Shown: positions 1 through 38,315 of the stretch, in pieces
How the letters are laid out: each line of letters begins with the position of its first letter
How positions within the stretch are numbered: the first letter of the stretch is position 1
Source: Psammoneis japonica
Taxonomy: Eukaryota
Direction of reading: 5' to 3'
Assembly (NCBI GenBank): GCA_008632985.1
Contig: QPGO01000005.1
Location: 124,001 to 188,000, forward strand
Length of the DNA stretch: 64,000 nucleotides
Notes under the pieces: model-generated
The model's input: only the letters and a program-made list of their open reading frames with translations
Databases searched by the model: none
What the model was told of the DNA's origin: nothing
Program-made: the position numbers and the translations under genes

Positions 1-1406
1 CACCGATTCGGCAGGGAGTTCAAGGGATCCAGCATCAACAACTGCAGATGGCTCACCAACAGATTCCACAACAGACATGGTGGACTTGACAGTCAAGGAA
101 TTGGCATCCGCAGGATCCATCCGAGCATCCACAGTGAGTGCACCTGCAACATGAGACACAACAGCAGCATCAGTGTTGCATGCAGCAGACCCAGCAACTG
201 GGCCCAGCTTGGAGGCCTTAAATCCATGAGAGTGCGAAGGATGGGTCACAGATGCAGCAGGAAGCACAACAGCTTTCCCGCATCCGTGAGTGTCACCGGA
301 AGGGGAAGCATCCTGTTGGCCACAAGCTGGCACATCCTTGAGAAGTCCTTTAGGATGGGCAGTGTACAGAACACTGGTCGGAGGCAGAGTCATGTTTGAA
401 TCTTCAGCAGGAGGGTGAACACTCTTCAACGCATTGGTCACAGCTTGCTCAAACTGTTTTGGACCACCAGGTGAATGAGTGGCTGAGGCCTTGGCAAGGT
501 CTTCAGGAGCAGCACCTGCAGTGGCAGCCGGCCGAGGTGAAGAACTTGGAGCAGAAGAGGAATCCGGGAAAGGAGCATCAGACACATCATCCCAACAATC
601 ACAAGATTGAAAACCAGGACGAAAATGGAGATGAACAGTCCCTGCATGTGTCGTCATGGTGTCATGACCTTCCGAGATCGCTTTGATCACAGCCTTCTGA
701 AGAGTGCTGAGGTTCAGACAAACCAGAGAACCTTGAGGAGCAGCCACAAAGAGAGGAGCCTTGTCAAAGATCGGTCTGATTTGTGCAAGATCTGCAGTCA
801 GTGCAGCTTGAGGGATGATGAGGTTCTGAACGATCTCATGACGGAGAACAGCAACAGCATCGTTCTTTGGGCCTTGAGGGGCAAATCCATCCAAAAGATC
901 TTCAAGAGCAGGGTTCTTGTCTGAATGAAGGGTGTTCAGGAAAATGTGTGCATCGGGTGGGCAATCATGCGGTTTGAATTCAACCAGCATCGTCTTGATC
1001 TTGGTCAAATCAACGGCATTTGGGTTTTTGTTCACCATGGTTGCGAGGGAAAAAATCAAATTCCTGTGCAGAGCTCTGGCATGTGTTCTGCGGTGGTCAT
1101 GATGATCACAAATCAAGAGAGAAAAACAGCTGTGACAAAGATGACAATTTCAACAGAGAAACATCACCAAATCACACAAAGAACGTTGCGATGGATGAGC
1201 ACAGAGGAAGAGGAACAGTGTGCTGCTCCTCACAACCTTGCGGGCTAGTGGCATCGGGACAATCTGACGGACATCTAGGACAGATGACAATCGTGTGCCA
1301 GATGAGAAAGAAAGTGAGCAAAGGAGAGATCATCGGATCTCTCCATGCTGTCTGTGCCACTCTGTCTGACACAAGGGAGTGCACTCCCCATCTCGGATGT
1401 CTGTCA
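1..1406 (-). mobile_element. Copia-like small LTR element, copy A (5' part; runs off the window start)
   Basis: Reverse complement aligns to 11530-~12750, with ~200 bp extra at ~190-410. Has a 169-bp LTR at 1238-1406 followed on the minus strand by PBS-like GGTTGTGAG. Confidence 0.85.
1238..1406 (-). repeat. 169-bp 5' LTR of copy A
   Basis: Same length as, and aligns base-for-base to, 11530-11698 and 14197-14365. Confidence 0.9.
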
Positions 1407-3033
1407 CCTTGTTTTTTCCCTCTGAGACTGCAGGGCTCTGCCAGGCAGGGACGACTCAGAAGTGATGAAAGCTGAAGATGAAGGAAACAGGAGATGTGTT
1501 TTCAACCCAGGTGGGTCACTCGGGGACAATGCACAAGGTTTTCTGTGCATTTCTGCGTGACACGCACTTTTTGCACCACAATCGTGTGCAATTTTCAAGC
1601 TCCCACGCGATGCTGTCTTTTTTTCATGCCTCATCCACAAATCGCGCACACCAAAAATGGCACCATGCCGCTGCCATGAACTCGACCATCCTTGCACCAT
1701 CATCCGTGATGACAAAGAAGGCAAGAATGCCAAAAGAGGTCAACAAGACTGAGGTCAATGTGATGATGTGGTTGAAGTTTTGATTTTTGCCGTTTGTCAT
1801 GTCTTGTGGACAGCCTTTTTCCTCATGACATTTTTTATGCCAATTTTTCTCATCCTCAGATTGCAATGCGGCATTCTTCAACATGCAAGGCTCCACTGAC
1901 TTGATGCTTCACACACACAACAATGCACATCTTTGTGGCACGTCAGTGTGATTTTTGTGATGCATGTGTGGGAGGAACTCAAACAGAGCCACAAGCCAAG
2001 AAAGCAAACAAACCTTTGGGTGCAAAAACAGCAGCCCAACTGCAGCAATGAGCATTTCACAGTTCTTCATGCCAATGACACTGGCATGGCACAACCAAGT
2101 CTTCAAGCTGTTCTCTCCAAGACCAAGCAACCCCAGAAGCTGGCTCAAGCTTGGTGCTTCATCATCAAATGACCTTGGCCACCCAACTTGGGAAGCTGGA
2201 AATCCCTGTCCCATGGAAGTTGGGTTTTGCCCCCCCCCAACAAAAAGGCAGTGCTGCTGTTGTTGTGTGTCACTCGCAAGTCAAGTCCCCCCCCCGTTGC
2301 AGCAAAGGAGTTAAAAATGGCTTTTCATGCCCCCCGCACATTGTTGACATGACAAATGCAGAGCGGGACACTGAGAGACACTCAGCCACTCACCTGTGCA
2401 TGCCAAAGCCCTTTCACCACAAGAATTTGAAGATGAGGGTTGCAACTTTGAGAGCTTGGGTGACATTGATGCAAATGACTGGGGCAATTTGCCTGTGAAG
2501 AAGATGCCAGGAGCAGAGGATCAAAATGACCTTGCCATGCTTGGAGGTGATGGGCTTGACAATGATGCAATGGCGTCAGCTCAAAATGTGCACAGAGGCC
2601 AACAAGCTGGTGCACAACCTTCCTTGAAACAGCAGAAGAAAAAGGAAATTGTCCGCTGCTGGCAAGTTGGCCACCTGTGCTGTCAACCCCACCTCTGAGG
2701 CACAAGTGACAGAGAGAACAAGACAGAACCCACACAAAGTTGTGGCTCAAGTCCACAGACTCACAGCCTTTCTGTCAGATGACACCAATGCCAAAAATGT
2801 GCCCCATGGAGGAGATGATTGAAGCAACAAGCTGGTGGGTTTGCTTCTCCCAATGTGGTCAATCACACAAAAATCCTGTGACATTCAAAGATGATGCATC
2901 CTTCCAAAGTGGGCACAGAGTGGAGCTGCTGGCACAGCAACGAGACTTTGCAAAGTGCCCCCACCCAGCAGCATGTGGCCACACACCATGTGGCACGTGG
3001 AGGGGAGACTCAGAGAAGTCCTTTGAAGAGGTG

Positions 3034-3390
3034 TGCACTGTGCTCAAAGAACGAGTGCAAATGAAAGTAGAGCCAAGCATGAAAAAGTGAAAATCATGAG
3101 ATCAAATTTTGCTCTGTGATTTTTTGTTTCTCCGAACGAGTTCTCAATGGCCCAAAGCTTCTGCACTGCTTCTACAGACAAAAGGCCTTTTGGAGAACAA
3201 CAGATTGTCCAGATGCGATTGCTGTTGACACGTGAGATGTCAACATCATCAATCGATCGCATTTGCAATTTTCGACATCCGATCAAAGCTGTGTGATCGT
3301 TCTGTCCTTTGCACGCATCCACAACTGTGGTGCGATTGACGCACAAACAACACACAATTTTGAATGTGCACATGACAGTTGCACACTGCA
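3034..3390 (-). repeat. gypsy 3' LTR
   Basis: Direct repeat of 11125-11495; TG...CA termini; adjacent PPT. Confidence 0.9.
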
Positions 3391-3419
3391 CTCGCCTCCC
3401 CAATTGCACATTAGAGTCA

Positions 3420-3805
3420 TTCGTTAAGTGGAACAATTCAACGGACATTGACAGTGTCAACAATGTCTCCACATCAACTGCATTGTGCCACTGGCAATGA
3501 CTGTTGTTGTTTTACACATGTGGGCCAGCATGGGGCCATTCCATTTTCTGTGAGCCTTTCTCAAGCAGTGTCTTTTCTCCTGTTCTTTACGGTGCATGCA
3601 AGGAGCACATCGAGCATTTTCTTGAGCATTGTTTTTATTTGTGATTTTTTTGTTTTTGCACTGCTGGATGAATTTCCAGTCTGCGACATGTTGGGTGTCA
3701 AATGTCACATCTCTGAAGACCAATTGTCCAGGTGCAGCTTGCGCAGCAGTGTGATGCGCAGAACGCACTGCAAATGCTGCTGCTGATGACATTCCAGCAT
3801 GTCTT
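3420..3805 (-). pseudogene. gypsy integrase C-terminal fragment
   Basis: SAAAFAVRSAHHTAAQAAPGQLVFRDVTF...NKNNAQENAR...GP...GT...TVNVR matches the recalled gypsy integrase tail (AAFAVRSTYHTTLQATPGQLVFGRDM). Confidence 0.85.
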
Positions 3806-6800
3806 TTGAGAGTGCCTTGTTTGTCTCACGCTCCACACATGCATTTGTGGCATGGAGTGGCGCACTTTCCAAAAGTGCAGTGCACAGTGCTCATCTACAT
3901 GCGGACAAACAGCGCCAGACTCTGCGCACCGAACACAACAAGATTTCACTCATTGCGCACGACAACAGCATGGGAAGTCTGTCATGTCGGGTGTGTCGAT
4001 GTCATTGCACTTCTTGCACACAAAAAATGCATCAATCCACTAGAATGTTGCACACGCGAATTGGATGGGATGCAGGATCTTGCAAATCTGGTGAAAAAAT
4101 CGTCCCCCCGTGCTTCACCGTGTTAAAAACCCCGTGCTGATCCTCCACGATGAATGAAAATCCAACTTTTTGTCAAAATCTGTTGTCGCGTGCTCACTTC
4201 AGTGCTTCATCAATGCAACTGACCAAGAAAACACAAAATGCACCCCAAAAAAAGTGAAAAACAACAGCCCCACTGCGGCCAAAGCGTGATTTCAGTGCCA
4301 AGTTGTGCGCGCCAAAAACCCTTTGTCACCAATGGCTCAACCAGCTCCCAAAACAACTCGATCATTGTCATTTGACATTGACACCTCATTTCTTGTCACA
4401 TCAGTTGTTGTCTCAGTGCATCACAACCTCCCAGCCAATGTCGCGGCATCGTTGCCGTGATGTTTGTGTGTGAAGTGAATTCAAACAAACATCTCTATGA
4501 ATTTTGCAGCACATTTTTATTTGCATGTGTTTTGTGCAGATCAGGCATGTGCACCAAATTTTTGAAAGTGCGCCACTCCATTGCGTCGAGCATTCTCTCT
4601 GACATTCTTTTGTTCATGTGAACACAAGGGCCAACTGTCCTGCTGTTCTTTCATGGTGTCGATTGTACACAGCATTTTGCCCAGTGCTCGATGTGTGCTC
4701 TTAATTGGCGTTCACTCACTTGCTTGTGGATTTCGTGCAGTTTGGCGGGCTTGCTTCACATGCCATGTTGCTCTGCTGCACTGCCACGTTTCTTAACTCT
4801 TTGTTCACCACAGCGACATGCGCGCTTTTTTTTTTTTCGTGAAGCGCAATGCAGCGCACCCAACCAGAAGACAACCAACATGGCACGTCGCCGTTTTCCG
4901 AGTCATTGCAACAGACAGTTTCATTGACACGGCAAAGTGCATTGTGATGGCTTGGTTTGGTTTGTTGTTGCATTGGCGTTGTTTTTGCACGTCTTCACTT
5001 GCTGGCTGTCGTGTCGGCATTTCTTGCATCGCGACAGGTGCGACCGACGGTGACAAACAGAATCGGTGTTGTCGTTTTCGTCGTCCGCAGGATGGAATCT
5101 GGTGGAATGTCAAACTGATGGGCAAGCATGCATCACAATGCTGTTGTTCTGTTGCATTGGATTGTCCTCTTTTGCATTTCACATCCCCCCAGCCAACCCT
5201 TGCTTTTCGTGCCACTGTTTTTTGCTTGTCAGTGCAAAATCACGGTCGTTTGTGGCATGGGCATGGTGGACGTGGATGTTGGCAAGCATGTCTCTGTGCT
5301 TGCCTTCAGTTCCCTTGACACTGCCATGGAGGATGCCGATTTGGAGTCCTGGGTGGCTCCCACAGCTGCCAGTTTACCTGCAGTGCCATCAAAAATTTGT
5401 GACTGTTTCATCCGTCACTTCTCATTGCGCCAATCAGATCAAAGAAAACAAGGTGGGACGGAATCTGGTGGAATTTCAAACAAACAGGCAAGCATGAATC
5501 ACAATGCTGTTGTTTTGTTGTGTCAGATTGTCTTTTCCCGCATTTCACATTCCCTCAGCTGACCCTTGCTTTTTGTGCCACTGTTTCTTGCTTTTCATAA
5601 AGACAACAGAAAGGCACGTCGCCGTTCGGAGTCATTGCAATCAACTGCGCCCCGACACCATGCGGGGTGATTGTCAACATGGCAAGGTGCATTCTGATGG
5701 CTTTGACTGGGTTGTTGTTGTGCTTTTGATGCATTTTCAATTCATGGTTTCTCACCGGCTCTTGTCGGCATTTCTTGCATCACAACAGGTGCGACCGACC
5801 GAGGCTGACAGAATCCGCACTGTTGTTTTCGGCATCCTGCTGACAGAATCTGGTGGAATGTCAAACAAGCAGGTGAGCACACAACACTGTTGTTTTGTTG
5901 ATTGGGAAACCCAACAAGGAAACACTGGTTGTTGCAGTTGAGGATTCGAAAGCAGTCCGTCACCTGGCACCTGGCCAGAGGGCCCCACCTTTGACTTCAG
6001 AGACTCGAGTCCTGGAGCCAACTTGAAAGACGAAAGCTCGTGCATGATTGTGAAATGACAAATCCATGCAGCTAAAAATCACAGACCCAACACACTGCAT
6101 GCTGTTTGTTGTTGTTGACAAACCTGCGTTGGTGCGCAGTGCCGAGGCACAAAAAACATGCGTTAGCACGTGATGCCGAGGTGTGACATGAAATGCATTG
6201 AACAGCAAATGACAATGGAAGAGACAACAGCACAAACTTGCTTTAAGTTGAAAAAAGCGTGCATGCAACTGCCGGCATCGCTTTCACCCCCCATCCACAA
6301 TTCAAATCCAACAGTGCCAAACACAACAACCGTTGCCAAAAATGTTCTTTCCAAAGGAAGAGCGACTTCTTGACAGTGGTGTGCATCCTTGCCATTCCTG
6401 TGGCATCAGCACTGACACCTGAATCTGAGTGACAAGCATTGCTGTTACAGTCCACTGCCACGCCATCAACGGCACTGTGCTCTCCATGCAATTCTAACGC
6501 AACAAATGAGCGAAGCCAGAAACACGCGTCAGTGCGTCAGTGTGTGATGCCAAGGCATTGCATGAAATGTGTTGAGTGACAAACAATGACAATGCAAGAG
6601 ACAGCAATGTAACTTGCTTTGGTGCCGAAACAGAAGCTTGCCTGCCTCTCTTTCGCCCCCCTTCTGTTGTTCAAAGCACAACTCACACCTCCTCCAATGT
6701 CTCAAACAGCAGCAACAACAGCAACTTTGTGAATGCAGTCAAATTGCTGCAGCAGAAGAAGCGGCAAGAACAAGAAGCACATCATTGAAATCAAAAATGC

Positions 6801-8760
6801 AATTGGACGATGGAAGACATCACCTGCTGTGGTGATTCTGTCACATCAGCGAAGACAATCACATCATTGCGGCTTTTGGCGTTGGCGCCGATGTGCCTTG
6901 TGTGTGGCGCAGTGTTGTGAAAAAAATGTGCGTCTGCACGACCACGCGAAAAAATCAGTTCCAATCCGTTGCGGCAAACAAAGAGCCAAGCAGTGATTGA
7001 TGATGGTCAAGGACATGACCATTTCATCTTGATGATCAATCCTGCGATGGTTGTGAGTTCCATTGTGGATTTTTTGCACTTCAACCATCTGTCAGTTGGA
7101 CTCCAATCATTGTTTGGACGTTTCTTTTTGACATGCCGGTGTCATTTTGTCACTCCGAAGGCGCTGCTTTCATGCACTGGTGGACAAATGATGTCCATTT
7201 TTCTTTTCTTTTTTCTGAATCTTTTGCACATCTCGTGTGTCGACATGACAAGTCATTCATGTCTTGCCTCATACATTGTGCAGCACAGCCATGCGGGTGT
7301 TCTGAGATTGTCTTTTGCCAGTGTGAAGTGGATGCTGCAATGTCGTGTGCCAATCTGTCACAGAGTTTTTTTCTAACCGTCCTTTCACAAGGCGATTTTG
7401 TCCTCATGACATGAGCATTTTTTGATCTCCCTGGCCTCCACGAAAAGTGTTCGCATGATGTGTCGCGTCCGACAATTTGGAAGGAATGTCTTTGTCCCGT
7501 TTCAACTGCAGGACATTGTTGCAGGATTCAATTTTTTTTATAGCAAGTCGGCTGATCATGTCGATCGACAACATTTCGGGAGACCACGGGAAAACAGGGC
7601 GTCCGCCCAGACGGTGTGCAATTTTACCTTGTTTTCCGTTGAACAGTGTGTAACATAGAAGAGAAGGACATGTGCATTCAACGGTCGGCTGTCGCAAAAA
7701 CTTGCGCGCGCTTTTGCTCGGACGTCTGACGTGCCAGCAGTTCTTTTTTAACGGATCGCCGAAACGCGTGCCGTTCGAGCAGTCATTTTTTACCGGACGG
7801 TAAAAAAATAGCATTGTTTTTTACCGTACGGTAACGGAGACGTTAAACTTTTGCCGTTGAGGCAAATCAAAACCCTCTCGGTTTCAGCATGAGAGCCGAC
7901 GGACGTTTTCCATGCTGACGTTTGTCTTTGAGCGTTCCACATCCTCCGCCCTCCGCCAAGCATCCGATCATCATACGAAGCCCTAAGGGAAGAAAGAAGG
8001 ACTCAGTATAGGCCATGGTGGTTTTTTATGGCATCAGAGAGCGATCGCTGATGCTGTGTGCGAACAGTATTTTTACCGGACGACGCAAAGTTGAGCCGTT
8101 CAAGCTGTTTTTTTTTACCGCACGACTCAACGTCAAGCCGTTCTCGCCAATGTTATTTAGCGAAATCGCCAACACAAACTTTTTTAGCGATTGTTATTAC
8201 TGCCCACATACAAATTCTACATAAGCCCTTTAAAATATATTTAATAACTTCTTTTCACAAATGTCCGAAGAACAACAGCCATTCAATTTTCCCATGCTCT
8301 CCGGAATTTTATAAGTGTTTTCACTATGGACAGAAGTTCTTTTTTCCGTTGTAACGTATAATAAAGAAATTTGTGTATGATAACAACATAGTTTTTGATT
8401 TGATGCGCTCCACATTTTCGGAGACTTTTCGTTCCGTACTTGCACTTTTGCCGTTTGACCTTTATTGAGGTGAATCTGGCTAGCATTGTGCAGGAGATTG
8501 TTGAGACTGCATGTCTCGACAGTGTCAATGTATGACGATGAGTTGTCGCAGTGTTGTTTGCATTTTTCTCGTGTTGCGATTGCTTGAATCGCCTCCGTTT
8601 CCTTTGCAATCGAATGCATGTCGTTGCGCATGGAAGTCTTGACAGTTTATTTCAAGTTAAACAGTGAAGGACTTTCTGTTGTTAACCTTCAAAGCAACTG
8701 TTCTAGTCGTGTAAATGCCGTGTTAAGCTGTTGCTTGCACAGGTGATGTTTTGAAGTCAC
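3806..8760. mobile_element. Unidentified ~5-kb nested insertion(s) replacing gypsy RT C-terminus, RNase H and integrase core
   Basis: Lies between the truncated RT (~8770) and the integrase tail (~3805). No pol similarity; contains internal duplications. Confidence 0.55.
4866..5900. repeat. Diverged internal duplications (periods ~365 and ~735 bp)
   Basis: GAATCTGGTGGAAT(G/T)TCAAAC occurs at ~5095, ~5461 and ~5846; GGCACGTCGCCGTT...GAGTCATTGCAA at ~4882 and ~5613. Confidence 0.8.
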
Positions 8761-8769
8761 TTTTTGTCA

Positions 8770-11048
8770 GGAACAAACGATCATTTACAGTCGTTCCGAC
8801 AACTTCAAACCTGTCATGAGTTCACTCATGTGTTGCATAAAAATGTCTGGGGCTCTGTGGCTTCTCATGGGAAGTCCATGGCACTCATTTTCTCCCCATG
8901 GCATGAGTTTCGTGTTGGCACGACATGTGCTTTTTTTAATTTGATGCGACAGTGTCCCACATTCAAATCGAGCAAGGTTGTACACATGAACCCTTCTGGT
9001 TTCTGAAGCACACTCTGATCATTTGGCAGAGGATGCAGCACACGTGCTGGCCTCTCACTCAGTTCATGAAAGTCGGACAGAAACTGAGCTTCGACCATTT
9101 TTCTGTTTTTTCAAAGGTTGGAGCTGTCCATTCAGAACAGTTTGTTTTCCTTTGGGACTTTTAGCTTGCAGAGCCTTTCAATCTCCTTGCAAGTCGCCTC
9201 CAAGGCTTGTGGAAACAGGAAGCCTTTCGCGTGATGCCTTCGCTGTGAGGTTTTCTGAGGAGAGCCATCGAAAAGAGATTCAAATCTTTTCAAAGGGAAG
9301 ATCAATTGCTTCTGCTCCTCTGGAGTCAGATGAGTTGCCGCAGCTGTCACATTGTTGAGATTGTCAGCGTGACAATGTGAGTCAAGGACCGTTGGCTCCA
9401 TTGTTGACTCCATTCACGACGTCACATTTTTCAATGTGATTGGCACTCAGCTGGAAACATTGGTTTCGAAGAGTGGATCAACAATCTTCACAGATGCAGT
9501 TGCTTCCTCCTTTTTGATTTCTTCATTTGCACAGTCCACTGTGATTTCAAGACTGGACATTGAGTTGCATCTCATGATCATGTCATGTGGACTTGAAGAA
9601 GAATTCTCATTGTCAACATGCACTGTTTGAATGTCATCATGTCTTGAACTCGCATGGTGAGAACTGAATTTGGTGTCCACTGTCAGTCGTAAAGAGCTCA
9701 CCCAAGTTTTTGGTGGCGGATTCTTGTGTTCTCAACTTTTGCACAAATTTGCACAAAATTGTGGTTGACGATGTTCCGTTGTCGACAGGAACACGCAGAT
9801 GCTTTTTTCTCTCCTTTCCCAAGGAAGTGTTCACATGAATGATGACTCCTGGACCAGCGTGGATCATTTCTGCCTTTTTTCTGGGCTTCCTGACATCCAG
9901 CAAAGCATGTAATTTGTGAATGGACCAAAATTGTTCTTTGGATTCACGCTGGATCATCCAATCAAATTGGTGATTTTCTTCACTGAGGGCATCAGAGTCT
10001 GATTCTTTGCCCTTGTGCTCTTTTTCTTTGCTCGAGGAACTCGCTTTGAGTGTTTTTTTTTTTTGAACTGTCTGATCATTCATGACGTTCAACTCTTTTT
10101 TGCGAGTGGCATTTTCGTTGTTGCGACCCCACGTGCGATTGCCATTTGAACGGCGCCGTTTCGGATCACGCTCAATGTGTCCACGGCGTTCTTTCACTGG
10201 TTCATTTTCAGAACAGCTTCAATCCGTGATGTGGGTGTTCTTTTTTCAAAGATTGCACCTTTTGTTCACTTTGGATTGTTCAGGTGCCACATGGGAGACC
10301 ATTTTTGGAACCAAATTTGGAACCATTTTGGTTTTGGAATCAACTCCGCCATCAGAGCCTGATTTGATGTGGTTTGTTGTCACAGACGTCATGAACGACT
10401 TCCAGACGACTCAAAACTCAATCAGCTCGTCAAAGGCAAGTTCCAACAGTTCAGCATTTTGGACAGCAGGCTGATGCTGCCATCCTTGCGGTGCGAGTGA
10501 CAGCTGACAGCTCACAGCTTGGTTTCTCGCTAGATTCAACTTAGAATCGATTGAAGGGTCGCACAGACGCTCTTCATTGACCTCTTGGGTCCAACAGAGG
10601 CTTTCTTGCTGTCAAGCAGCTCTGGTTTCTTCAGATCGTCTTGAAAATGATGACTCTGATTCTGAAGTGCAACCCTTGGAAAGACATGAGACAAGAGACT
10701 CTTGAGGCACTTTCCAACGGTTCCATCTTGCTCTTTGGACTCGAGACTCGTTGATTCGGTCTCACAAAACTCTCCAACAGTCTCTCCTTGCATGCCAGAT
10801 GCATTTCTTGGACCTGATCAACTCAAGACTTGAAATTCTACCCAACCATGACTTGGTGTGGACATTTCAACAATGCTGTGTGCTTGTGGAGTCCTTGGTC
10901 CTGAGGCACTTGGAATGGATTGTGTTGGAATGAATCCTCTTGTCTTGCAGATGAAAAACAGGGTTCCATCTTGAGGTGCTGCTCGGATTGAGCTGCTTCT
11001 GCTCGGAAATAAATTCCAGCAGAACTGGGGCATTTTGTGCCTGCTCAT
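8770..11048 (-). pseudogene. gypsy gag-protease-reverse transcriptase (N-terminal half), heavily mutated
   Basis: Protease-like LRVPVDNGTSSTTIL; RT motifs FLSDFHEL...LHPLP, EGFMCTTLLDLNVGHCRIKL, PWGENECHGLPM...APDIFMQHMSELMTGL. Confidence 0.88.
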
Positions 11049-11124
11049 GGAAGAATTTACAAAGGCACATCAGTTAAAATTTTCATTTTCTGTGTTTTTT
11101 ACCTTCTGCAGTGTGTGTGCACAA

Positions 11125-11495
11125 TGCACTGTGCTCGAAGAACGAGCACAAATGAAAGTAGAATCAAGCATGAAAAAGTGAAAATTGTGAGATTAAATTT
11201 TGCTCTGTGATTTTTGGTTTCTCCGAACAAGTTCTTGATGGCCTGAAGCTTCTGCACTGCTTCTACAGACAAAAGGCCTTTCGGAGAATGTGGTCATGAC
11301 AACAGATTGTCCGGATGTGATTGCCATTGACACGCAAGATTTCAACATCGTCAATCGATCGCATTTGCAATTTTTGACATCCGGTCAACTCTGTGTGATC
11401 GTTCTGTCCTTTGCACGCATCCACGACTGTGGTGCGATTGACGTGCACCAAACAATGTGCAGTTTTGAACATGCATGCAACAGTCGCATGCTGCA
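11125..11495 (-). repeat. gypsy 5' LTR
   Basis: Direct repeat of 3034-3390; followed by TSD GGTG. Confidence 0.9.
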
Positions 11496-11529
11496 GGTGC
11501 CAGTGTGACACACCTGAGGCGACAAGGAC

Positions 11530-14365
11530 TGACAGACATCCGAGATGGGGAGTGCACTCCCTTGTGTCGGACAGACTGGCATGGACAGCATGGAGAGATC
11601 CGATGATCTCTCCTTTGCTCACTTTCTTTCTCATCCAGTGCGCGATTGTCATCTGTCCCAGACATCCGTTAGATTGTCCCGACGCCGCTAGTCTGCAAGG
11701 TTGTGAGCAGCAGTGCACTGTTTTCCTCTTCCTCTGTGCTCCTCTGTTGCAACACCCGTTGTGTGATTTGGCAATTTTTCTTCGTTGAAATCGTCATCAT
11801 TGTCACAGCCATTTTTTTGCCTCTCGATTTGTGATCAGATGACCACCGTAGAATGCATGCCAGCATTCCATGCAGGAATTTGATTTTTTCCCACGCAACC
11901 ATGATCATCCAAAATCAAAACGCCGTCGATTTGACCAAGATCAAGACGGCACGGGTTGAATTCAACCCACACAATCGCTTGCCCGATGCCCACATTTTCC
12001 TGAATGCCCTTTGTTCGGACGATCCCTGCTCCTGAAGATCTTTTGGATGGACTCACTCCTCAAGGCCTCAAGCGCAATGCTGTTGCCATCCTCCGTCACA
12101 AGATCGTTCAGAATCTTGTCATCCCTGAAGCTGCCTTGACCAAAGATCTTGCACGAATCGGGCCGATCATTGAAAAGGCTCCTCTCTGTGTGGCCACCCC
12201 TCAAGGATCCCCGGTTCGTCTGAACCTCAGCAGTCTTCAGAAGGCCATGATCGAAGCAATCACAGAGAACGACGACACCACAAAGGCATGTGTTGGCACT
12301 TTGCGTTTCCATTTCTGTCCTGGTTTCCAGCATTGTGATTGCTGGGATGACATTTCAGATGATCCGCATCCAGTCCCATGGTCTGCTTCAAGTTCTGCAT
12401 CTCCACTGGTTGCTGCTGCAGGCCCCACTCCTGAAGACTTTGCCAAGGCCTTGGCAACTCATTCACCTGGTCCAAACGAGTGTGGGCAAGCTGTGACCAA
12501 TGGATTGAAGAGCATTTTGAGTTCTCATGCATGCGCTGAGTCCAAGTTGTGCCCAGATCCCACCTCTGCCACCAGTGGCTGCAACACTGCTGTTGCATCT
12601 CGTGGCAAAGATGCGCTCACTGTGGACTCTCGGATGGACCCTGTGGATGACAGTTCCTTGAACATCAAGTCTGCTGTGTCTGTTGTGGAACCGGTGGGTG
12701 AGCCATCTGCAGATGTTGATGCTGGATCCCTTGAACTTCCTGCCGAATCCACAGTCCTTCCTGCTGACGTCCACTCCTGCCCACTTGAGACCCCGAAGTT
12801 TTTTGTTTCTGGCTGTTCCATTGTTCCACACAAAGATGGTCATGTTCACCTCCAGGATGGACTTCCCTCCATTGCCAAGGTCACACCAAAGCTGCTTGCC
12901 ACCTGTGTGCCACTGTCATCTGACACTTGCGGATGCCGCCAGTGCTCTGTTGGTTGTCAAGTTGATTCGCACTCGGATTTTTGGTTTGGCCGTCGTTGGT
13001 TTTGGACACACAGCGCTGCCATTCCTTCCATTGTCCGAACAAGACCAACAGGAGTGGGGCAGTTGTGAAAGAGGGCCACGGAGTCTTGCCACCTTCCGCC
13101 ACTCCATCTCTTTCCTCCATTGTCAGGACCATTGTCGTGTCTAAAAGTGCTTTTCATGGTGCTCCAGACCTGTCCACCATCGCTGACGATGATCCTTTGA
13201 TTCTTGATCAGGGGAGGGCGCATTGTGGCGCAGAGGAAGTGTGCAAGATTGATCAGTGCGCAACAGTCTCCACTGGAAAAATGTTGGGTGACCAAGATTC
13301 GCACGTCACGGAGAATTCCACGACCACACGTCGATCTTCTTCTGACAATGAAGCACTCCAGGCTGTGTTCTGTTTGCTCACTGAGCTTGGAAGCGGGGCA
13401 ACCCAGAAAGAGGGCAACCGCGTCTCGTTGCCTCCCACTGCATCACTTCTGTCCTTCGCCGTCAGGACCGTTGTTGCTTCAAACGGCATTTTTCCTGGCA
13501 CCCCCGACCCATCGACCATCCCTGATGATGACCCCACATTTTTTGATCAGGGGAGGGATCCCCACAGCACAGTGAAAGCATGCAAGGCTGCTGAGCATTC
13601 AGCATTCTTCCAAGATGCCTTCTGTGATGATCACATTTTGCACGCCGTGCGATGCTCACCTTTGATGCGTCACTGTTCTTCCGACGTTGAGCGATTTTAC
13701 GAAGCATTTTGTCTGTCCAATGTGTTTTTCAGGGGCAACACAAAATGTGGCAGATTTTTTGGTTTGTCAGGAGGGCCGCCATTGCTTCATTTTCACCGCA
13801 TCCTTCGCCATGGTGGATTTCCATTTTTTGGCCCCATCTCTTCCGATGATTTTTGGCGACAGCATGACTCGCCAGAATGTCCCGTTGTGGTCGATCATTT
13901 AGGAACTGACAAAATTGTTCTTTGGTGCACAACTCAATTTGTCCAAAAGATTTGTTGGGAGCTGACTTTGATGTTTTTTGTCGAAGACCGATGCATTGAA
14001 CGCGGGATGGATGTTTTAGTCCCGACATGCTTGTCGCTTGTTGGGGTGTTGTCGTTGATTGTTGTCGTGTTTGCGGATCAAGTCTTGGCCATTTCTTTTG
14101 GTTCTTTCTCTTTGTTCCTGCTGTTCTGGTCCTCTCTTTTTATTCGGATCGTCTCTTTCTTTCTTGTTGAGCATTGCATGGCTCATCAGGGGAGGGTGAC
14201 AGACATCCAAGATGGGGAGTGCACTCCCTTGTGTCGGACAGACTGGCACACACAGCATGGAGAGATCCGATGATCTCTCCTTTGCTCACTTTCTTTCTCA
14301 TCTAGTGCGCGATTGTCATCTGTCCTAGACATCCGTTAGATTGTCCCGATGCCGCTAGTCCGTAA
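11530..14365 (+). mobile_element. Complete 2.84-kb non-autonomous copia-like LTR element, copy B (gag-like ORFs, no pol)
   Basis: 169-bp LTRs at 11530-11698 and 14197-14365 (9 mismatches); PBS-like GGTTGTGAGC at 11699; PPT ATCAGGGGAGGG at 14185-14196; near-TSD AGGAC/ATGAC; no RT/INT motifs seen. Confidence 0.88.
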
Positions 14366-22792: not shown

Positions 22793-22975
22793 TTTTGATG
22801 AACCTCTGAGTTGTGTTGTACCAATCAAACAACAGACATTGATCGGTTCTTCCGCTTTTCCTACCTCTCGATATCAGTTGTGCCAATTCCAGTAAATCAC
22901 GTCCTGCAACGATCCATTATCACTCAGAGTGAAAACAGTTGCACAGCAGAGGACACGATAGGTTCACGCCATTTC

Positions 22976-30162: not shown

Positions 30163-30619
30163 CGTCGAAACCGCCATCAGCGTGAAAAAGTGAACCGATT
30201 GTGAGAGGGTGCTGTCAACTTGAGAAGGGTGCAGATCATGGTACATCATACATAGTGTAGAGCGCCTACGGCACTCTACTTAGCTATACTAATAGTACAT
30301 TTTGTACTACTGGTACATAACTCTACGTGGTATAAGTGTCAAGTTGAATTTCGGGATGTGCAATGAGAACCCTCGTATTTAATAATCGTGAATGGCACGT
30401 GTCATGATAGCTAATCGCTTTACTCATTCATTGGATAGTATTTCCCTCTCTTCATTTACACTATCGATTTTAAAGTACTTTTGAAAATATGCTGCCTGCC
30501 ACAAGCGTTATTCATACTTTTATCCAACCTCGCCATCATGATTCTTCTATTCTTCCCACATTGCTTCCCTAATGCATTCAAATTCCCGAATGTTTGTCAA
30601 CCTAAAGTCCCGCAAAATT

Positions 30620-33600
30620 TCACGCATGTCGCATGCTGCAGTCATGTCATGTGCAGACACAAAAATTCAAATTGATGTTCTCATGCACAAATGAACTCTT
30701 GGCCATGACACAAACTCTGCCCCCTGGATCTTCTTGTGCGTTGATGTTCCTCCACCTGAGCCCTGCTTCTTGCCCAGTCAATTCCCAAAATGCTGCCTTG
30801 GGAATCTGTGGTTGTGTGGTTCTCAGAGAAATGCAACAGCCACCCAATTTTTGTTTGCTCTCCGGGGAGAGGGGCCAAGTTTGGGTGCAACCCAGCTCCA
30901 TGTTGCCGCTGCCAACAAAAACACTTGGGAAGCTCGCACTTGTGAAAAAATGCTTGCCCTGCATCTGGGTGTCTTTTTTGGCAGCTCTCCTCTGGATCCT
31001 TTGTTTTGAGGGTTTCTTTGCCCACCCTTCCTTTTGCAGCTGTGTAAAAGGGGAGGAGAGCCTGCCTGTGCAGCACTGAAGATGTCTTCACAGCCACCTC
31101 TTCTTCACAGCACTGCCTCACTTTAGCCTTGTCCTTTTTTCATCACTCTTGATGATCAGCACTGGCACTTGTGTGTCTCTTCACTCATGTTGCTGCCCCC
31201 ACCCGCTGCACCAGCTTTTACAGCCCAGTGGCTGCCATCATTGTGGGCCTCCTGTCAGCGCTGCTGCACTCACCTTGTCAGAAGCAAGGTGTGCCCGCTG
31301 CTGAGGTGGAATCTGGCTGTTTTTCTCCGCTGCATGCACAGGCTCTGAGCATGAGCAACATTTCCTTGGCTGCCATTGATGCCCATCATGTCCTTGGCAT
31401 TGTTGTCTTCATTTAAGGAGTTTGCCACCTGCAGCGGGGGAAGCATGGGATGTTGTGCCCCAGATCACCAGGGAGCAGGTGCGTGCTTCTGAGCCAGAGA
31501 CAGAATTTGAAGCACATGCTGTGCTCAGCCATCATTGCAAGTTTGAACAATTTGGGGTTGAAATTGAGGGAATTGTGGTGCAATGGAAATTGCCTGGGTG
31601 TGGTGGAGGGTGGAAGGAGTGGTTTGTGATGATGGTGTGTAAAAGGGAGAGCCTGCAGTGCGCAGACAAGCCATCTGGGTGAGGAACAAGCAGTGGTGGG
31701 ACAGCAAAGGAGCAAAGATTGGCAGCAGGTGGACAGGTATTTGGAGAGGGTGAGGCCAATGTCAAGACTGAGAAGCTGGGCCACCACCCAGGATTGAGGA
31801 GCAGAAGAGAAACAGGACATCCAAAGTGGTTGTGGGAGAGTTGTCTCAAGGGCACCTTGGCCTGCGTGAGTGGGTCAAGTGGAGAAAGTGGAGAAGACTG
31901 GCACGCCAAGAAGGAATCCTGAGAGTTGAAAAAGTTGGGGGGAGTGCTCCAAAATTGCTTGGGAGGTGGGAGTGGGAGAGAAGCCAAGATGCTGGCAGAG
32001 TGACCAAATGAAACTGCATGAAAATGGTGCCCCATGCTGCCCAGACAATCAAGGGTGAAGGGGAGGAGGAAGATGCTGGCTTGATCAATGGCAGCAACAG
32101 CAGAAGAGATGTGAAAGGAGTGGGTGCTAAAGCCAAGAGCTTGTCCTGGGTGCTGCTGAGGCAAGCTTTGGAAAGAAGATTGAAAGGGGCAGGCCACAAG
32201 CTGGGTCAGGATGGGGAGGAGCAGGCAAAAAATCAATGGCAAGAAAAATGTGCACAGAAGGAGCACTGGGAGGGCTGGAGCCAGAGATGAACTGAGCACC
32301 AATGTTGGCGGGGAATGTTTGAGTGGGTGGTCTTTCTGCAAAATCTGGCTGTTCTTTGACTGTCACCACACATGACAATGACAAAAGGGGCAACAAAAGC
32401 AAAAACTCTCCTCATCAGCTTGGCCACAGCCTCAAAAATGAGCAGCTTCTTTGAAAGCTGGTCAATGTCCTGAAGCTGCTTTCTCAAAAACTCAAAATGT
32501 TTGTGTTTCCAGGCAGGGCACTGACCCACAATGCAGCCCATGCCTGCACACTGCCGCCACCATTCATGGCTCCTCTCTTTGAAAGCTGCAAGATTGACAA
32601 CAACACCGGATGTGGTGCAAGGTGCCAAGGGTTGTTCTGAGAACTGCTCTTTTTTTGTGAATGAGACTCAGACTTGAACTGGGTGCTGACCTGCAGCCAA
32701 TGGATGGGCCAAAAGCAGTGGCTGACTCTTTCCTGGAGGCATCCAGGGATTTCTCAACTCTGTTTTTAAATGCTCCTTTTAGGCTCCTCCACATGCACTG
32801 CTTTGGCTGCTCTCTCACCTGTCTGTGTGGAACAAACTCCCTCCCTGCCCCACCCACACTGCAAGAACTGCGATTGTGCACAGTGCAGTGATCTAACTGG
32901 CAAGGCACCACCAGCAGCAGCACCACTGCCCCCCTTGTTCTCAACCAAAGTTTGTGCTGCAGCACACAACACTGTTGGCCTGCCTTTGTGGTGCACAGGC
33001 ACTCAGCATGGTGTGCAGGCTGATTGTGGTGGGCTGCACAGAGGCATCCTCTTGACACAGGCCAGGGCATTGAAAGAAAGAGGGGGTGGGTGGGGTGGCA
33101 ATGCTGACTTCAAAGGCAGCAGAAGAGGCGCAGCTTGTGCTGTGGCAGCTCTGCTGACAGAGACATTGGAGCGTGCGTTGTAGCAATCCAGACCACGTTG
33201 CAGCACATCATTGTTTCAAACCTTGACAGTTGTGTGTGTGGTGATAAATTTTTGCATGAAAGACAAAAAAAAAACATTGCTGTTGCACCCCACCATGTCC
33301 CATGAGACAAAACCTTCAACCATGAAAATGCACCCCATTTCCCCTTCAGCATGCCTGCCTTTTTAACCTGCAGACTTCGACATTCAAAAGCCTTTTGACA
33401 AAAACAATTTGCACCGACACACATGATCAATGTCAATTCTGGAATGTGCAGCACAAGTTGTTTGTCATCAATGGCATGAATGGCTCTCAATGAACACAAA
33501 ATTCCTTTGTTCCTGGTTTGCAAATGTTTTTGATGAACTCTGACACATTGCTTTGCTGTTTTCCATTCCAGCATCAACAATGGGCTCTGCTCCCCCTCTG

Positions 33601-36600
33601 CACCAGAGTTTGCCCAATTTCTGCACCTTCTTCATCCTCGCTTCCTGCTCCACTTCCTTTTTCCTCATCTTTGCTGTCCTTCTTGCCCCTGTTCTTTTCC
33701 ATTTCCTCTTCCTTGTCCTCCTTGTCATCACCAGAAAGCTCTGTTGTTGTCCGTTTTCTTGCCTCCTCCTTCTCCACTGGCATTTTCTTCTTTTTTGCTC
33801 CCTTGCCCTTTTCATTGCTCTCCCTCTTCTTGCTGCCACTGCAACATGTGTGTCAAGCTTGCCCTGTCCTCCTTCACTTGCACAAGCAGGATGTTGAACC
33901 GCAATGTTTCCTTCATCATTCCATGAGTTGCGCTGTTGCCTTGGGTCCACGCACTTGGGTGCTGGTTTCAACTCCTCCTCCTCCTTGTTCCCTGTGTCTT
34001 CCCCCCTCCAACAGTTTTCTCATGCAGGGCCTTGTGCTCCCAATTCTTCCAGCAGTTTTCCAATGTCAAAAACCCCAGAGCCTCGTTGTTGCTTGCTGCA
34101 GTTAGATCTGGAGCCTTGGTCTCACCCAACTCCAGCTTCTTTCTCCACACTGCAGTGCTCTTCGTAAATTTTAGGACATTGTTGCAGAACCATGCACATG
34201 CTTCCTTTTGTCACTTTGCTTCTCCTCCACAATTGTGCCCACTGTCTGCTCCTCCCAAGTTGCCAGGAATGATTCTTCATCCGCCACTTGATCCTTCTTC
34301 TTCCTCTTCCCTCTTTGTTTTTTGGTGGCAGCTTTCTTGTTCTGACTGTGCAACTCCTTGACTTGCTGCTCTGGCATCACGACTGCACCAAAGAATGGCA
34401 CTGTCAAGTGTCGCCACACTCAACATGCCATGCATCACAAAACACTTGCCAGCCATCATGTTCTTCTGCATCGTCTAGGTGATGGTGTTCCTTTTTGCAT
34501 CAACTGCATTTGTGGTGCACTTCTTTGCCCAGTCTTCCCATGATGCTGCCCAGTTTTGCTTGCTGAAATTGCCACCAGCTGTCTTTTTCTGAATGAGCCG
34601 CAACACTTTGCCACTGCTGGCCATGTCTGCCTTGACAAGGAACTTTGCCTTTGGGGGTGGCTCTCTCCATGCCACCTCTTTAATCTCTTTCTTCATGGAC
34701 TGGTCATCATCATCCAAATTTCATTCCGGTGACAGGAACGACTGCCAATTCCTCTGTGATGATGGGTTGGCAGTGCTCCGATTCATCAAACCCATCAACG
34801 ACTTCATCAATTTAAGACTCCTTGGATGATGATTTGTGATGTGCGGGCTCTGATTCATCACTGTCATCGTTGATGGAGGATTCCTTCAACAGCAATTTTA
34901 ATTCATTGTTGGCAACAACTCCATGAGGTGCCAAGAATTTGTCACTGTCATCGTCAATGGCAGATTGTTCCTCAGACAATGAGTTTGGTTCATTGTCAGC
35001 AATTTGCCACTGTCGTCGTCAGTTGGAGTTTTCTCCAACATTGAGTTTGATTTGTTGTCAGCAACAACTCCATTGGCAACCAAATTTGACACATCTGAGG
35101 TGACAACTTGGCTGGTGCACACCTTGTAAAGGTTTGGGTCTGCATCAACACACTCTGCCATTTGATGCTCTGTGAATCCACATGCCTTGCACAGACACTG
35201 ACCAGAGGGAAGGAAGGTGAAGAGGTCTTGTCCAGAACAGGGACCACGGAACACATGATCGAACATGCAGGTGCAACGATTGTCAGCATTTTACAAAGCT
35301 TGTGCTCCGTTCCATTCCAATCATGCTCTTTGGTGCCAGTCTCTGAAGATGTGCATGTTGGTGCATGAGTGGCTGTTTTTCCAGTTGGATGTGCTCCATT
35401 TGTGCAGCAGCTCCGGAATTGAACACAGGATGCACCATGTCATTCAGACCTGGATGGTCCTTGACTGCAACAGTGGCTGGCACCAGACATTGCAGCACTG
35501 ACATGAGATGAATCTTGCTGAAATCTGCTCCCAGTGTGCCCAGACATTGCAGGCAGCCTTGCAGCATTGTTCCATCAAATTGGGACAGAACTCTTCTGTG
35601 CTTGCATTGTCGTTTGTCCAAAGCAGCAGTGCACAGATTTCATCCATGATGAGGTCCACCAGTGAAAACATGAAGACCGCATGTGGCCTTGGGTTTGGCT
35701 GATTTGGTGGAGCCGGGCTCCTTTGGATGATGCGACCACCCAGCACAACCAAACTTTGTTCTTCGTTTGTTGCCGGACTCAACTGCAACCCATCCAATGC
35801 GTTTTGGGTTTAACTCGCCCTTCAACAAAACAAAAAGCAGAAGGGCAGGAATGCACACACGAAGACACCCAAAGTGGGCTTTGTGCAGAGCATTTGCTTG
35901 TTGGGCAATGGAGATTTCCTCCAAGCAGTGTTCCAGGTTGGGAGGGTGCTTGGCTTGGACACGGGAGGCAGTGGTGGTTTCACTCGAGGGAGTTTTGTTG
36001 GAGAGTGTGTGCCAGTTTTCCCGCAAGTTGTCTGCCAGGTAAAAGTCAGCAGCAGAATGATGCAGCACACACTCAGTGTTGGTGGCCTTGTCAATGATGT
36101 GCAGGTGCAACACATGGGTGGCAACTTCCTCCGAGGTGACAGATCAACAAGGTTGGAAGGTTGGCGGTGAGAGTGTGGTTGGCCTCCCTGGACGATGGCA
36201 CATCACCAGACAATGAAGGAGGTGCCAGGTTTGAGCATGATGCGGTCTTGGCTTTCTTGTTGGGGATGGACAAGGAAGGCTCTGGTGGGGCACACAAAGT
36301 CAAGGGGGGAAAGGATCCATGAGACAAAAGATGCAGGCAGGCAATGAAGGCAAGGGGGGGCACTTGCCATCATGCAAACAGGTGCCATCTTTGCAGATCC
36401 TCCTGATTTTGCATTTGGTTTTGGATTTGTGCTCTTGTTTGTCATCGTCTTCCAGGTGGTTGGCCCTCTGACCATGCACTCTGCAATGAAGCATTGTGAG
36501 CTGCTTGCTGCACCCAGGTTGCACACCAGGTTGCTTCTTGGTTCAGTGCTTCCCAAATTCATGACTCGACATGGAATTGATTTTTTCTTCATGCACCTCC

Positions 36601-38315
36601 CAACATGCAAGGGAATTGCCTGCCATTGTCACAGAGTTCTCAATGTCACCAATTTTTTCTCTGAGGAACCCTTGATCTCATCCTCCTGGGAACCCGGTTC
36701 ACCAGAATTGCACATGACTAGAAAGCTGTTGATGAACATGTGCCACTCCTTTTGGGCATTGACATGGCAAAAAAATCTGCATGAACTGACAATCCATGTC
36801 CTTGGGTTTACACTGGATGTGACGCATGACAATGTTGGTGACAAAACATGCACTGTGAAGGTTGTGGGCTTGGTCGTTGATCAATGCTTGGAAATTTTTG
36901 CACTGCAAAAAACGGAAACAACAAGGCTCGCCAGAGACAGGATCATTCAGGTCATTGCTGGTGATGATTGCATGCTCCTTGATGTTGTGGTGAAGCAACA
37001 TGCGGTGACCCTCTTTTTTTCTGTCTCTGCAGGCATTTTGGAGAAACAGAGAGCTTCCTCCAAATTCCGATGTTGAAGAACATCATGTTCACCTTTCAGT
37101 GCCCAGGATTTCTGCATGGACCAACCACAAGTCATGATGCAGGACCAAATGTCAGGGCATCCAAGAGTTTTCCTGACAATGTCACTGGTGCGGATGACTT
37201 CTGCGACATGTGGAATGCAACAACACTTTGGCTTGTGACAAAGGAAGGGAAGGGCAAGGAAGTCTGGAGAGGAGGACCAATTTGTTGTCTCTAAAAACTG
37301 CTTTTTGCATGCATGCACTGAAGTTGTGCTTTTGAGCTTGGGTCCAAAGAGCTCCATTCCAAAACCCATTGGTGAAACATTCCATTTCATCAAAATCACA
37401 CTCATTGGGAAACTGGAAGGAAGGGTCGGGGTTGACCTCGTCGTGGGACTGGGCAAAGTCGTTGACCACCATTGCCAGCAGTCAGTTGTAATTCATGCAG
37501 AATGCACATGAATCACAACAGCACATGCTCCAGTCAAATGAAATTTGGGGAGAGGATGTGCAGTCATGAAACAGGTGGACAATCATGCGTGCAGAACATG
37601 TGCTAAAAATTGGGCAAGGAGCCACGCACTGAAATTCTGGTGGAAAGTGCGGAAGAACAATGAGGCAAGTGCGCATGGGGGATGACTTGGGCATGGAGGG
37701 GATGCCAGAAACCACAGTGGTGCATGTGCAGGGGTGGAGCCAGTGAAAACCACTTTCAAAGAGAACACATCAAAAGAAATGCGGCAATGTCATCAAAACG
37801 AAACGTTTTTTGACATTGAAGAAAAGGTGCACGTGGACCAAATTTGTAAAAACATTGAAAAAAAGCAACAAGAGATGTTGTGAAACACTTGAAACAAATG
37901 CAATGTTCAAACCACTTTGAAGTGCAAAAGCCACAAAACAAAGACAAACTCGCATGACATTCAATGCAACAAATCGGACAAAGGGAAGAGTGAGCACGGC
38001 TGCATTGTGGCCTCTGATGGATGAGACTTCAGCTCTCATGGTCTGTGTTTTTCAAAAATGACATGGCTGGAGAAGCCAAAAGCTGCAGCTGCCAGAGCAA
38101 CACATGATCTTGCCCTGACAAGAAAGAGAAAAACGTGCTGGCGCTTTTGTGCACTCTGAGCTGCCACGAGAAGAACATGCGCGAGCACAGCTGTTTGGAG
38201 AAGGACACACAATCTTTTGGAAATTGGAAAGCACTAACATTCTACTTTTTTTTTAAGCAGAGCTCAGAAAGACACACCTGCTCAACCATTGGTTGCAAGT
38301 GCAGAACAATGCTCT
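30620..38315. mobile_element. TpA- and CpG-depleted block 2; degenerate element(s) of undetermined class
   Basis: Manual count 1 TA and 3 CG in 31801-32400; fragmented Tyr-free ORFs; sharp return to normal composition at both ends. Confidence 0.75.

Follow-up and report, generated by a model that had tools for sequence, protein, structure and literature searches.

TpA-poor blocks and what they contain

The DNA examined here is a 64,000-nt stretch of the Psammoneis japonica genome (assembly GCA_008632985.1, contig QPGO01000005.1, positions 124,001 to 188,000), referred to below as the window, in which two blocks of partly repetitive DNA have lost nearly all of their TpA (TA) dinucleotides beside genes of normal TA content. 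The blocks were pooled (1-7400, 9001-17480 and 30700-38250; 23,431 nt, 23,428 dinucleotides) and compared with the flanking genes. They held 101 TA, where 918 were expected at the flanking-gene frequency of 0.0392 (binomial p ~1e-266), giving a TA rho (observed/expected) of 0.07 versus 0.58 in the genes. A preliminary description of this DNA had called the blocks almost TA-free and the neighbouring genes normal, and its counts were exact (3 TA in 1-600, 1 in 31801-32400 and 15 in 19201-19501). It had also described six-frame open reading frames (ORFs) rich in Cys and His, Tyr-free and short of TAA/TAG stops, which was borne out: Tyr made up 0.11% of six-frame residues in the blocks versus 2.26% in the genes, Cys 5.84% versus 3.60% and His 4.98% versus 3.27%, and TAA and TAG together took 151 of 46,850 codons versus 1,264 of 76,396.

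Measured per 1-kb segment, the TA ratio was 0.00-0.14 throughout 1-7000, 9001-17000 and 31001-38000, and 0.39-0.73 throughout 17001-31000 and 38001-64000. The positions of individual TA resolved the block edges to ~100-200 nt. On the right of block 1, the last TA lies at 17372 and a dense run of TA starts at 17547; the edges of block 2 fall between TA at 30603 and 31045 on the left, and at 37847 and 38235 on the right. TG and CA were in excess in the blocks (rho 1.66 versus 1.18 in genes for TG, 1.70 versus 1.14 for CA). The features of the blocks are collected in Table 1.

Table 1. Blocks, repeats and gag-like remnants in the window, with coordinates counted from its first nucleotide.
Feature	Coordinates	Strand	Details
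Block 1a, TA- and CpG-poor	1..7400		TA rho 0.02-0.11 per kb up to 7000; TG+CA rho 1.64-1.82
Degenerate gag-like ORF, Ty1/copia-type	1..1149	-	runs off the window; 17 remote homologues
Long terminal repeat (LTR)-like 170-nt repeat, copy 3	1238..1408	-	copies 90-96% identical
Spared island in block 1	7400..9000		TA rho 0.24-0.51, CG rho 1.0-1.1
Block 1b, TA- and CpG-poor	9001..17480		TA rho 0.00-0.14 per kb
LTR-like 170-nt repeat, copy 1	11530..11698	+	copies 90-96% identical
Second degenerate gag-like copy	12004..13065	+	DNA 80% identical to 422-1412, inverted; proteins 61% identical
LTR-like 170-nt repeat, copy 2	14197..14365	+	copies 90-96% identical
181-nt tandem repeat, ~3 copies, TA-free	15925..16467	+	3-copy alignment
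Block 2, TA-poor, strongest CpG depletion	30700..38250		TA rho 0.05-0.11, CG rho 0.06-0.37
Single-copy part of block 2, equally TA-free	31168..33808	.	one 2,650-nt Logan contig, word depth 58
High-copy repeat of block 2	33600..37500	.	summed word depth 845-2,706 in most bins vs ~58 unit

The blocks had been introduced as transposon blocks, a label borne out for only a part of them, namely a copia-type gag remnant and the high-copy family at ~33.6-37.5 kb. Among the eight block ORFs of at least 200 aa (of 19 such in the window), none matched a Pfam family at E <= 0.001, and the 105 further block ORFs of at least 90 aa gave no transposon domain and six chance-level matches below gathering scores (E 0.0013-0.0074). 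A HMMER search with the minus-strand gag-like ORF at the left end of the window returned 17 remote homologues at E <= 1e-3 (proteins P0121-P0137, E 2.1e-10 to 9.4e-4), and no Pfam family was found in the 13 of these 17 that were scanned. The homologous-protein search with the second gag-like copy gave no match. Members of the family share a conserved N-terminal domain of ~220 aa and reach ~650-715 aa at full length; the alignment shows a C-terminal Cys-Cys-His-Cys, which we take to be a knuckle-like motif. One member lay nearest the Retrotrans_gag and zf-CCHC clusters in the Atlas (score 0.87, a lead only).

A search for related loci with protein P0134 led to one metagenome locus, L001, and a 10-protein alignment (A3) yielded no conserved stretch. 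L001 carries an intact 725-aa ORF (513-2690) followed by an ORF with gag_pre-integrase (PF13976). When its gag and pol were compared with the window by tblastn, weak gag matches were obtained (E 0.001 and 0.41) and no pol. To judge by gag-like homology only, the piece at 1-1400 and 11.5-14.4 kb is probably the decayed gag of a Ty1/copia-type element; its plus-strand copy is flanked by the 170-nt direct repeats, 2,667 nt apart.

Copy number in block 2 was taken from contigs of sequencing run X1. In all, 991 contigs matched 30001-39000 at 80% likeness or more, most of them short and diverged. Depth over the bins of 30001-33000 was 55-91. The term repeat or transposon therefore applies to some of the block DNA, whereas no less than 2.6 kb of it is single-copy at a likeness of at least 80%. 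The single-copy stretch (unit depth ~58) is as TA-free as the rest, and the earlier statement that the loss is restricted to repeats was too strong, although this stretch could have been a repeat long ago, with relatives now too diverged to reach 80% likeness.

Direction, strand pattern and sequence preference of the loss

The frequencies of pyrimidine-purine (YR) dinucleotides were redistributed in the blocks at a constant total. Their sum (TA+CG+TG+CA) was 0.2389 in the blocks versus 0.2400 in the genes; TA+CG fell from 0.0954 in genes to 0.0292 in blocks (a drop of 0.0662), and TG+CA rose from 0.1446 to 0.2097 (a gain of 0.0651). The remaining 12 dinucleotide rhos shifted by no more than 0.10, and the GC content was unchanged (0.488 in blocks versus 0.480 in genes). 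Taken by flank pair, the YR balance held to ~13%, G..C excepted. That pair was the one clear departure, GTGC/GCAC being commoner in the blocks than predicted (181 versus 129 per 10^4).

CpG was depleted in the same blocks (CG rho 0.42 overall). The TG/CA excess remarked on in the preliminary description is real, but ~47% of it (0.0314 of dinucleotides) derives from CpG decay, and ~53% (0.0349) from TpA loss. The CpG loss was uniform with respect to context (survival 0.44, p = 0.066). It was much stronger in block 2 (rho 0.06-0.37 over 31-38 kb) than in block 1 (0.13-0.77), whereas TA loss was similar in both; TA loss therefore appears to reach saturation before CpG loss, which may be usable as the slower of two clocks. 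The two losses have common edges and a common spared island. Decay of CpG, presumably through 5-methylcytosine (5mC), is the second component in the blocks.

The direction of change was examined in nine intra-window repeat alignments (2,718 columns), which contained 313 transitions and 123 transversions. Nearly half of the transitions (148 of 313) lay in 74 double differences at which one copy read TG and the other CA (TG:CA). The other classes of adjacent double transition occurred 4-8 times each, and CG:TA did not occur. A TG:CA difference indicates an ancestral palindrome, either TA or CG, that was resolved independently in each copy. Other copy states included CG:CG (44), CG against TG or CA (69), TG:TG (189) and CA:CA (216). 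From the first two of these, a model of independent CpG decay alone gave a per-copy CpG loss of 0.44 and predicted 13.5 TG:CA sites, compared with the 74 found; the copy spectra thus hold the excess of TA to TG/CA change on which the preliminary description had made its proposal depend. Derivation of all 74 sites from CpG would require an ancestral CpG density ~2-fold that of the genes, and the flanks of the double sites (5' side A>G>C>T) were closer to those of TA sites than of CG sites (chi-square, approximate). About 60 of the 74 are best assigned to ancestral TA.

The three-copy LTR-like family gave the polarity directly. At one site the three copies carry CA, TA and TG, a combination for which TA is the sole possible ancestor, and two sites read CA, TA and TA, making four events from TA to CA or TG and none in reverse. 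Every TA surviving in this family lies in CTAG or TTAG. The three copies of the 181-nt tandem repeat showed two sites reading CA, CG and TG, and six TG/CA-mixed sites without a surviving ancestor.

Outside the window, the gag ORF of the intact relative L001 had a normal TA rho of 0.61. Over the shared domain, Tyr made up 1.6-3.8% of residues in 13 aligned homologues and 0% in the window copies; a Tyr column kept in 12 of the 13 homologues is His in the window copies, and a second (10 of 13) is Ser and His. The possibility that the elements had been TA-free from the start, raised earlier as one that would undo the proposal, was not what these relatives showed. As read from the aligned copies, TA was lost in place, after the copies had diverged. 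The central claim of a directional process from TpA to TpG/CpA in the blocks and not in their neighbours is upheld by the mass balance, the 74 TG:CA sites, the 4:0 polarity and the normal TA content of L001.

Along the three blocks, TG and CA followed one another with no clustering by strand (runs test, z = -0.91, 0.59 and -0.89), and the genes were mildly clustered (z from -1.5 to -2.6). TG and CA states alternated irregularly across the 74 double sites, and the gag-bearing stretch 11501-14500 held 297 TG and 271 CA. Because the two outcomes are interleaved without strand runs, each TpA appears to have been resolved on either strand independently, in duplex DNA and in place. The interleaving argues against editing of one RNA strand before reverse transcription, and equally against a processive burst by a single-strand deaminase.

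The 101 surviving TA were not a random sample of contexts. A 5' A preceded 4% of them versus 28% of genic TA, and a 5' T preceded 48% versus 21%. Relative to the numbers expected without loss, survivors were rarest in ATAT (0 of 69), ATAC/GTAT (2 of 143), ATAG/CTAT (1 of 102) and GTAC (2 of 78), intermediate in ATAA/TTAT (7 of 125), CTAC/GTAG (9 of 132), CTAG (10 of 50) and GTAA/TTAC (26 of 123), and most frequent in CTAA/TTAG (27 of 65) and TTAA (17 of 32). Uniform loss was rejected (chi-square 161, 9 degrees of freedom). A four-parameter model in which the two strands contribute additively, each at a rate set by the base 3' of the mutated A, fitted the data (chi-square 5.5, 6 degrees of freedom), with rates of 2.92 for T, 1.58 for C, 0.83 for G and 0.19 for A. 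With the mutated base written as A, these survival counts imply a preference of TAT > TAC > TAG > TAA. Since TpA loss depends on context and CpG loss does not, two distinct processes are indicated, and the fact that the TpA process reads at least a trinucleotide points to an enzyme. Rough estimates of the losses per lineage since the copies diverged were ~94% for TA and ~44% for CpG, with ~3.9% change at other sites; the per-site rates, again roughly estimated, were ~70-fold (TpA) and ~15-fold (CpG) over background.

Known mutation systems and the proposed mechanism

The process had been put forward as undescribed, a claim that does not survive a recent preprint. Mettrop et al. (April 2026, bioRxiv 10.64898/2026.01.13.699255) report hypermutation confined to TpA in integrated DNA of nucleocytoplasmic large DNA viruses (NCLDV) and virophages in the chlorarachniophyte Bigelowiella natans. 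According to its main text, 231 of 302 new nuclear substitutions in mutation-accumulation lines fell in giant-virus and virophage regions, and 230 of the 231 were A to G or T to C, all at TpA, at ~1000-fold background and in some lines only. The B. natans genome is described there as containing 124 TpA-poor clusters rich in CpA and TpG, with TpA-poor genes enriched in reverse-transcriptase and DDE domains, and an ADAT2-like deaminase is proposed as the agent but not tested. In the literature searched (subscription journals lay outside its coverage), TpA hypermutation was described by this preprint alone and no report came from a diatom; the main text of the preprint contains neither 'diatom' nor 'stramenopile'. 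When the cluster thresholds of the preprint were applied with a combined rho of our own construction rather than its formula, 19 of 64 1-kb segments passed, all within the blocks and including runs of seven each at 1-7000 and 31001-38000, and none of the 40 segments in 17001-31000 and 38001-64000 did so.

The likeness to B. natans, as far as the preprint's main text describes it, extends to a change at TpA only, giving TpG or CpA according to strand, in foreign or silent DNA with normal genes beside it and in single-copy DNA as well. In the window, the change is confined to YR dinucleotides, with AA, AT and TT essentially unchanged, and the edges at ~17.5, 30.65 and 38.25 kb enclose a gag remnant and a high-copy repeat in presumably silent DNA. 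The two cases differ in host, a diatom-like stramenopile here in place of a rhizarian, and in targets, which are transposon or repeat blocks here and inserts of giant viruses there. In the window the depletion approaches saturation (rho 0.07, versus 0.45 for B. natans in its NCLDV region) and coincides with strong CpG decay, whereas the words 'CpG' and '5mC' are absent from the main text of the preprint. A flanking preference was derived here, and that text gives no flanking context. Finally, the window preserves a historical footprint, unlike the real-time mutation followed in B. natans; a hint of the latter is that two residual block TA read CA in run X1, among the best-supported 40 of 831 differences. 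New here are the host lineage, the transposon-block targets, the near-saturation, the edges common with CpG decay and the additive TAT > TAC > TAG > TAA preference.

Fungal repeat-induced point mutation (RIP) converts C to T, mainly at CpA in duplicated DNA, and so creates TpA and lowers GC (10.64898/2026.01.13.699255; PMC7296669). As in the RIP of Neurospora and other fungi described in these sources, the process in the window would be a mutational defence with one transition class and a preferred dinucleotide, by which repeats lose coding capacity. Unlike RIP, it destroys TpA (rho 0.07), leaves GC unchanged and also hits the single-copy stretch 31168-33808. APOBEC enzymes convert C to U in strand-coordinated clusters, and ADAR enzymes act on double-stranded RNA. 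Editing by AID/APOBEC and ADAR resembles the present case as enzyme-driven, context-specific transition that disables invading nucleic acids, and differs from it in that here A:T is converted to G:C, the site is TpA in DNA, and strand runs are absent. For the second component, the nearest match is the decay of CpG in diatom repeats that are methylated. In Cyclotella cryptica, repeats are reported to lie in large CpG-hypermethylated blocks beside unmethylated gene blocks (PMC5124317), a block-wise pattern that the window matches. The CG deficit, the differences of CG against TG or CA between copies and the context-uniform loss in the window also fit CpG decay. CpG decay cannot remove TpA, and is ~5-fold slower per site than the TpA process (a rough estimate). 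As accounts of the TpA loss, RIP, CpG decay, editing of ADAR/APOBEC type and Pol-eta all fall short on one or more of the defining features tested.

We are fairly confident that the blocks consist of silenced DNA, from repeats or transposons of a diatom-like genome, that has been worn in place by CpG decay together with a separate TpA process. Methylated CpG would have decayed in the ordinary way to TpG/CpA, and a much faster process specific to TpA would have converted A:T of TpA to G:C, on either strand independently, removing ~90% of TpA. Its agent may be an enzyme that recognises a short motif in the DNA of silent and probably CpG-methylated chromatin. The most likely candidate, in line with the proposal for B. 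natans, is a TadA/ADAT-type adenine deaminase of nucleic acids that would work on DNA, turning A into inosine, which is read as G. Invading DNA would be inactivated through lost Tyr codons and other missense changes. The edges common with CpG decay and the equally hit single-copy stretch suggest that targeting is to silent, methylated domains and not to duplication.

Several points weigh against this reading. Most of the block sequence carries no recognisable transposon protein. The copy spectra rest on ~2.7 kb of alignments and one 170-nt three-copy family in a single 64-kb window, and the expectation of 13.5 TG:CA sites assumes one CpG decay rate and would rise with strong rate heterogeneity. 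The survival figures presume a gene-like ancestral tetranucleotide make-up and ignore re-creation of TA. Run X1, of unrecorded platform and perhaps from the window's own sample, gives no independent proof that base-calling artefacts are absent.

The strongest rival places the lesion on the other base. A modified thymine in A-T-A context, for example from TET/JBP-type oxidation, would mispair with G and give T to C. Dinoflagellate hydroxymethyluracil shows enrichment at TpA and TpC, and mispairing with G is a property of 5-formyluracil. TpA is self-complementary, so all results fit this account equally, including the strand symmetry, with the model rewritten as ATA > GTA > CTA > TTA. Adenine and thymine chemistry are not separable by sequence, A to inosine and a T to C lesion being mirror images. 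No sequence result favours modified thymine over adenine deamination, and we regard it as rather unlikely. Among the mechanisms listed in the preliminary description, deamination of DNA adenine with a 5' T and a mutagenic modified thymine both stay live, and an ADAR-like route through RNA falls with the interleaved strands.

An artefact of sequencing or assembly, in which a modified base at TpA (and 5mC at CpG) was miscalled and the true DNA keeps its TA, is very improbable. Symmetric modification could indeed yield random TG or CA calls site by site. Against this, k-mer contigs of run X1 (unit depth ~58) carry the same TA-free sequence: the 2,650-nt contig over 31168-33808, where ~100 TA would be expected, is likewise TA-free and differs from the window by 20 substitutions and 11 gaps (~99% identity), and further contigs of 1,160 and 1,506 nt differ by 8 and 4 substitutions. 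The best-supported 40 of 831 differences between X1 and the window comprise 18 between CpG and TpG/CpA, 5 between TpA and TpG/CpA, and one TG to CA double (31880/31881). For 14 of the 18 CpG-type differences the window reads TG or CA and X1 reads CG, which is the direction expected if 5mC is miscalled in an assembly of long reads. Of the five TpA-type differences among the same 40, two are within the block (32894 and 33181), with CA in X1 and TA in the window, and the other three are beyond its edges; none of the 40 restores TA at a block TG/CA site. Diverged copies also agree in most of their TG and CA states (TG:TG 189, CA:CA 216), which random miscalling would not give, and the same signature represents true mutations in Illumina data of B. 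natans, as reported in the preprint (10.64898/2026.01.13.699255).

It is highly improbable that the composition is native, with elements, or a foreign source (a virus, for instance), that were TA-free on entry. What speaks for it is that no homologue could be recognised for most of the block sequence by which its starting composition might be judged. Such an origin is nevertheless at odds with the 74 TG:CA double differences, the CA/TA/TG site, the normal TA content of L001 and the presence of Tyr in 13 of 13 homologues, and with the finding that several unrelated sequences have the trait with one common sharp boundary.

Hyperediting of retrotransposon transcripts from A to inosine by an ADAR- or ADAT-like enzyme, fixed by reverse transcription, is the least credible of these accounts and extremely improbable. 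The one identified piece is a copia-type gag, as this account would have it, and RNA A-to-I editing enzymes favour a 5' U. Editing of sense RNA predicts TG without CA, whereas the 297 TG and 271 CA over 11501-14500 are nearly balanced and interleaved. The changes postdate the divergence of the genomic copies and of the LTR-like repeats, and the single-copy stretch is equally hit. ADARs prefer a 3' G, in contrast to the 3' preference of T>C>G>A found here.

Four further candidates were rejected. Error-prone repair by Pol-eta (WA to WG), one of the mechanisms suggested in the preliminary description, should also hit AA, which is not depleted (rho 1.22 in blocks versus 1.16 in genes); GC-biased gene conversion would deplete AA, AT and TT, all three unchanged; selection against UpA is excluded by decayed non-coding repeats that resolve each site randomly to TG or CA; and an ultraviolet TA photoproduct would not be confined to domains.

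The preferred reading, with CpG decay and a separate TpA process in silenced DNA, leads to a wider proposal that we offer tentatively: diatoms may have an enzyme-driven, motif-specific TpA defence (TAT>TAC>TAG>TAA), acting on both strands of chromatin marked for silence, that is the same system as in B. natans, an ancient 'adenine RIP' of the stramenopile-alveolate-rhizarian (SAR) supergroup rather than a peculiarity of a single lineage. RIP and APOBEC-type editing are examples of cells disarming invading DNA by mutation, and, to our knowledge, all well-studied cases attack cytosine. If the proposal is true, algae of ecological dominance would widely possess a TpA process, its targets would include both transposons and viruses, and it would have its targeting in common with CpG methylation domains. 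The effector would then edit adenine (or thymine) in DNA naturally and with a defined preference for trinucleotides, and a natural DNA adenine editor would be of interest for base editing. The flank preference is a fingerprint that can be compared with the B. natans mutations and with candidate deaminases. For annotation, diatom transposon surveys would miss such copies, in which no Pfam domain survives here; the vanished TAA and TAG stops produce long spurious ORFs, and divergence-based dating of repeats would be badly biased.

Spared island, block borders and neighbouring genes

In the island spared within block 1, CpG is normal and TA reaches roughly half its normal level; per 250 nt, TA rises to 9-19 and CG to 15-24. 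It contains at least four copies of a motif made of a T run followed by ACCG-N-ACGG/ACGAC (for example near 7785, 7820, 8070 and 8108), and scans of the island with Pfam, Rfam and for tRNAs gave no match. It could be an unmethylated promoter-like segment or one recently inserted.

Abutting the left edge of block 2 is a very TA-rich stretch (30242-30603, 38 TA in ~360 nt), which lies upstream of a minus-strand multicopper-oxidase gene. Here the contig of run X1 and the window differ at five sites, including changes between TG and TA and between TA and CA. A second run, X2 (30 Mb of contigs, guessed to be DNA), has contigs within 30001-39000 on the genic flanks alone (30001-30309 and 38457-39000), with identical sequence. 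Run X2 looks like a transcriptome, and its missing coverage of the block is evidence neither of silence nor of expression.

A scan of the whole window found no Rfam families or tRNAs. The ORFs outside the blocks are ordinary eukaryotic ones, most of them uninterrupted. Besides the multicopper oxidase they encode a DUF7640 protein, a sulfotransferase, an MFS_5 transporter, a galectin-domain protein, a class IV aminotransferase, a mitochondrial carrier, a bromodomain protein, a Transferase-family (PF02458) protein and an N-terminal asparagine amidohydrolase. The mitochondrial carrier had a top match of 59% identity and is 48-51% identical to proteins of the diatoms Fragilariopsis, Cylindrotheca and Nitzschia, its best named relatives. 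By such protein similarity, the genes flanking the blocks are diatom-like and not those of Bigelowiella. A pair of 68-nt direct repeats, 94% identical and ~150 nt apart, is found upstream of the DUF7640 gene at 18240-18537, and the gene itself contains an in-frame 39-nt tandem repeat of 2.9 copies (19004-19117).

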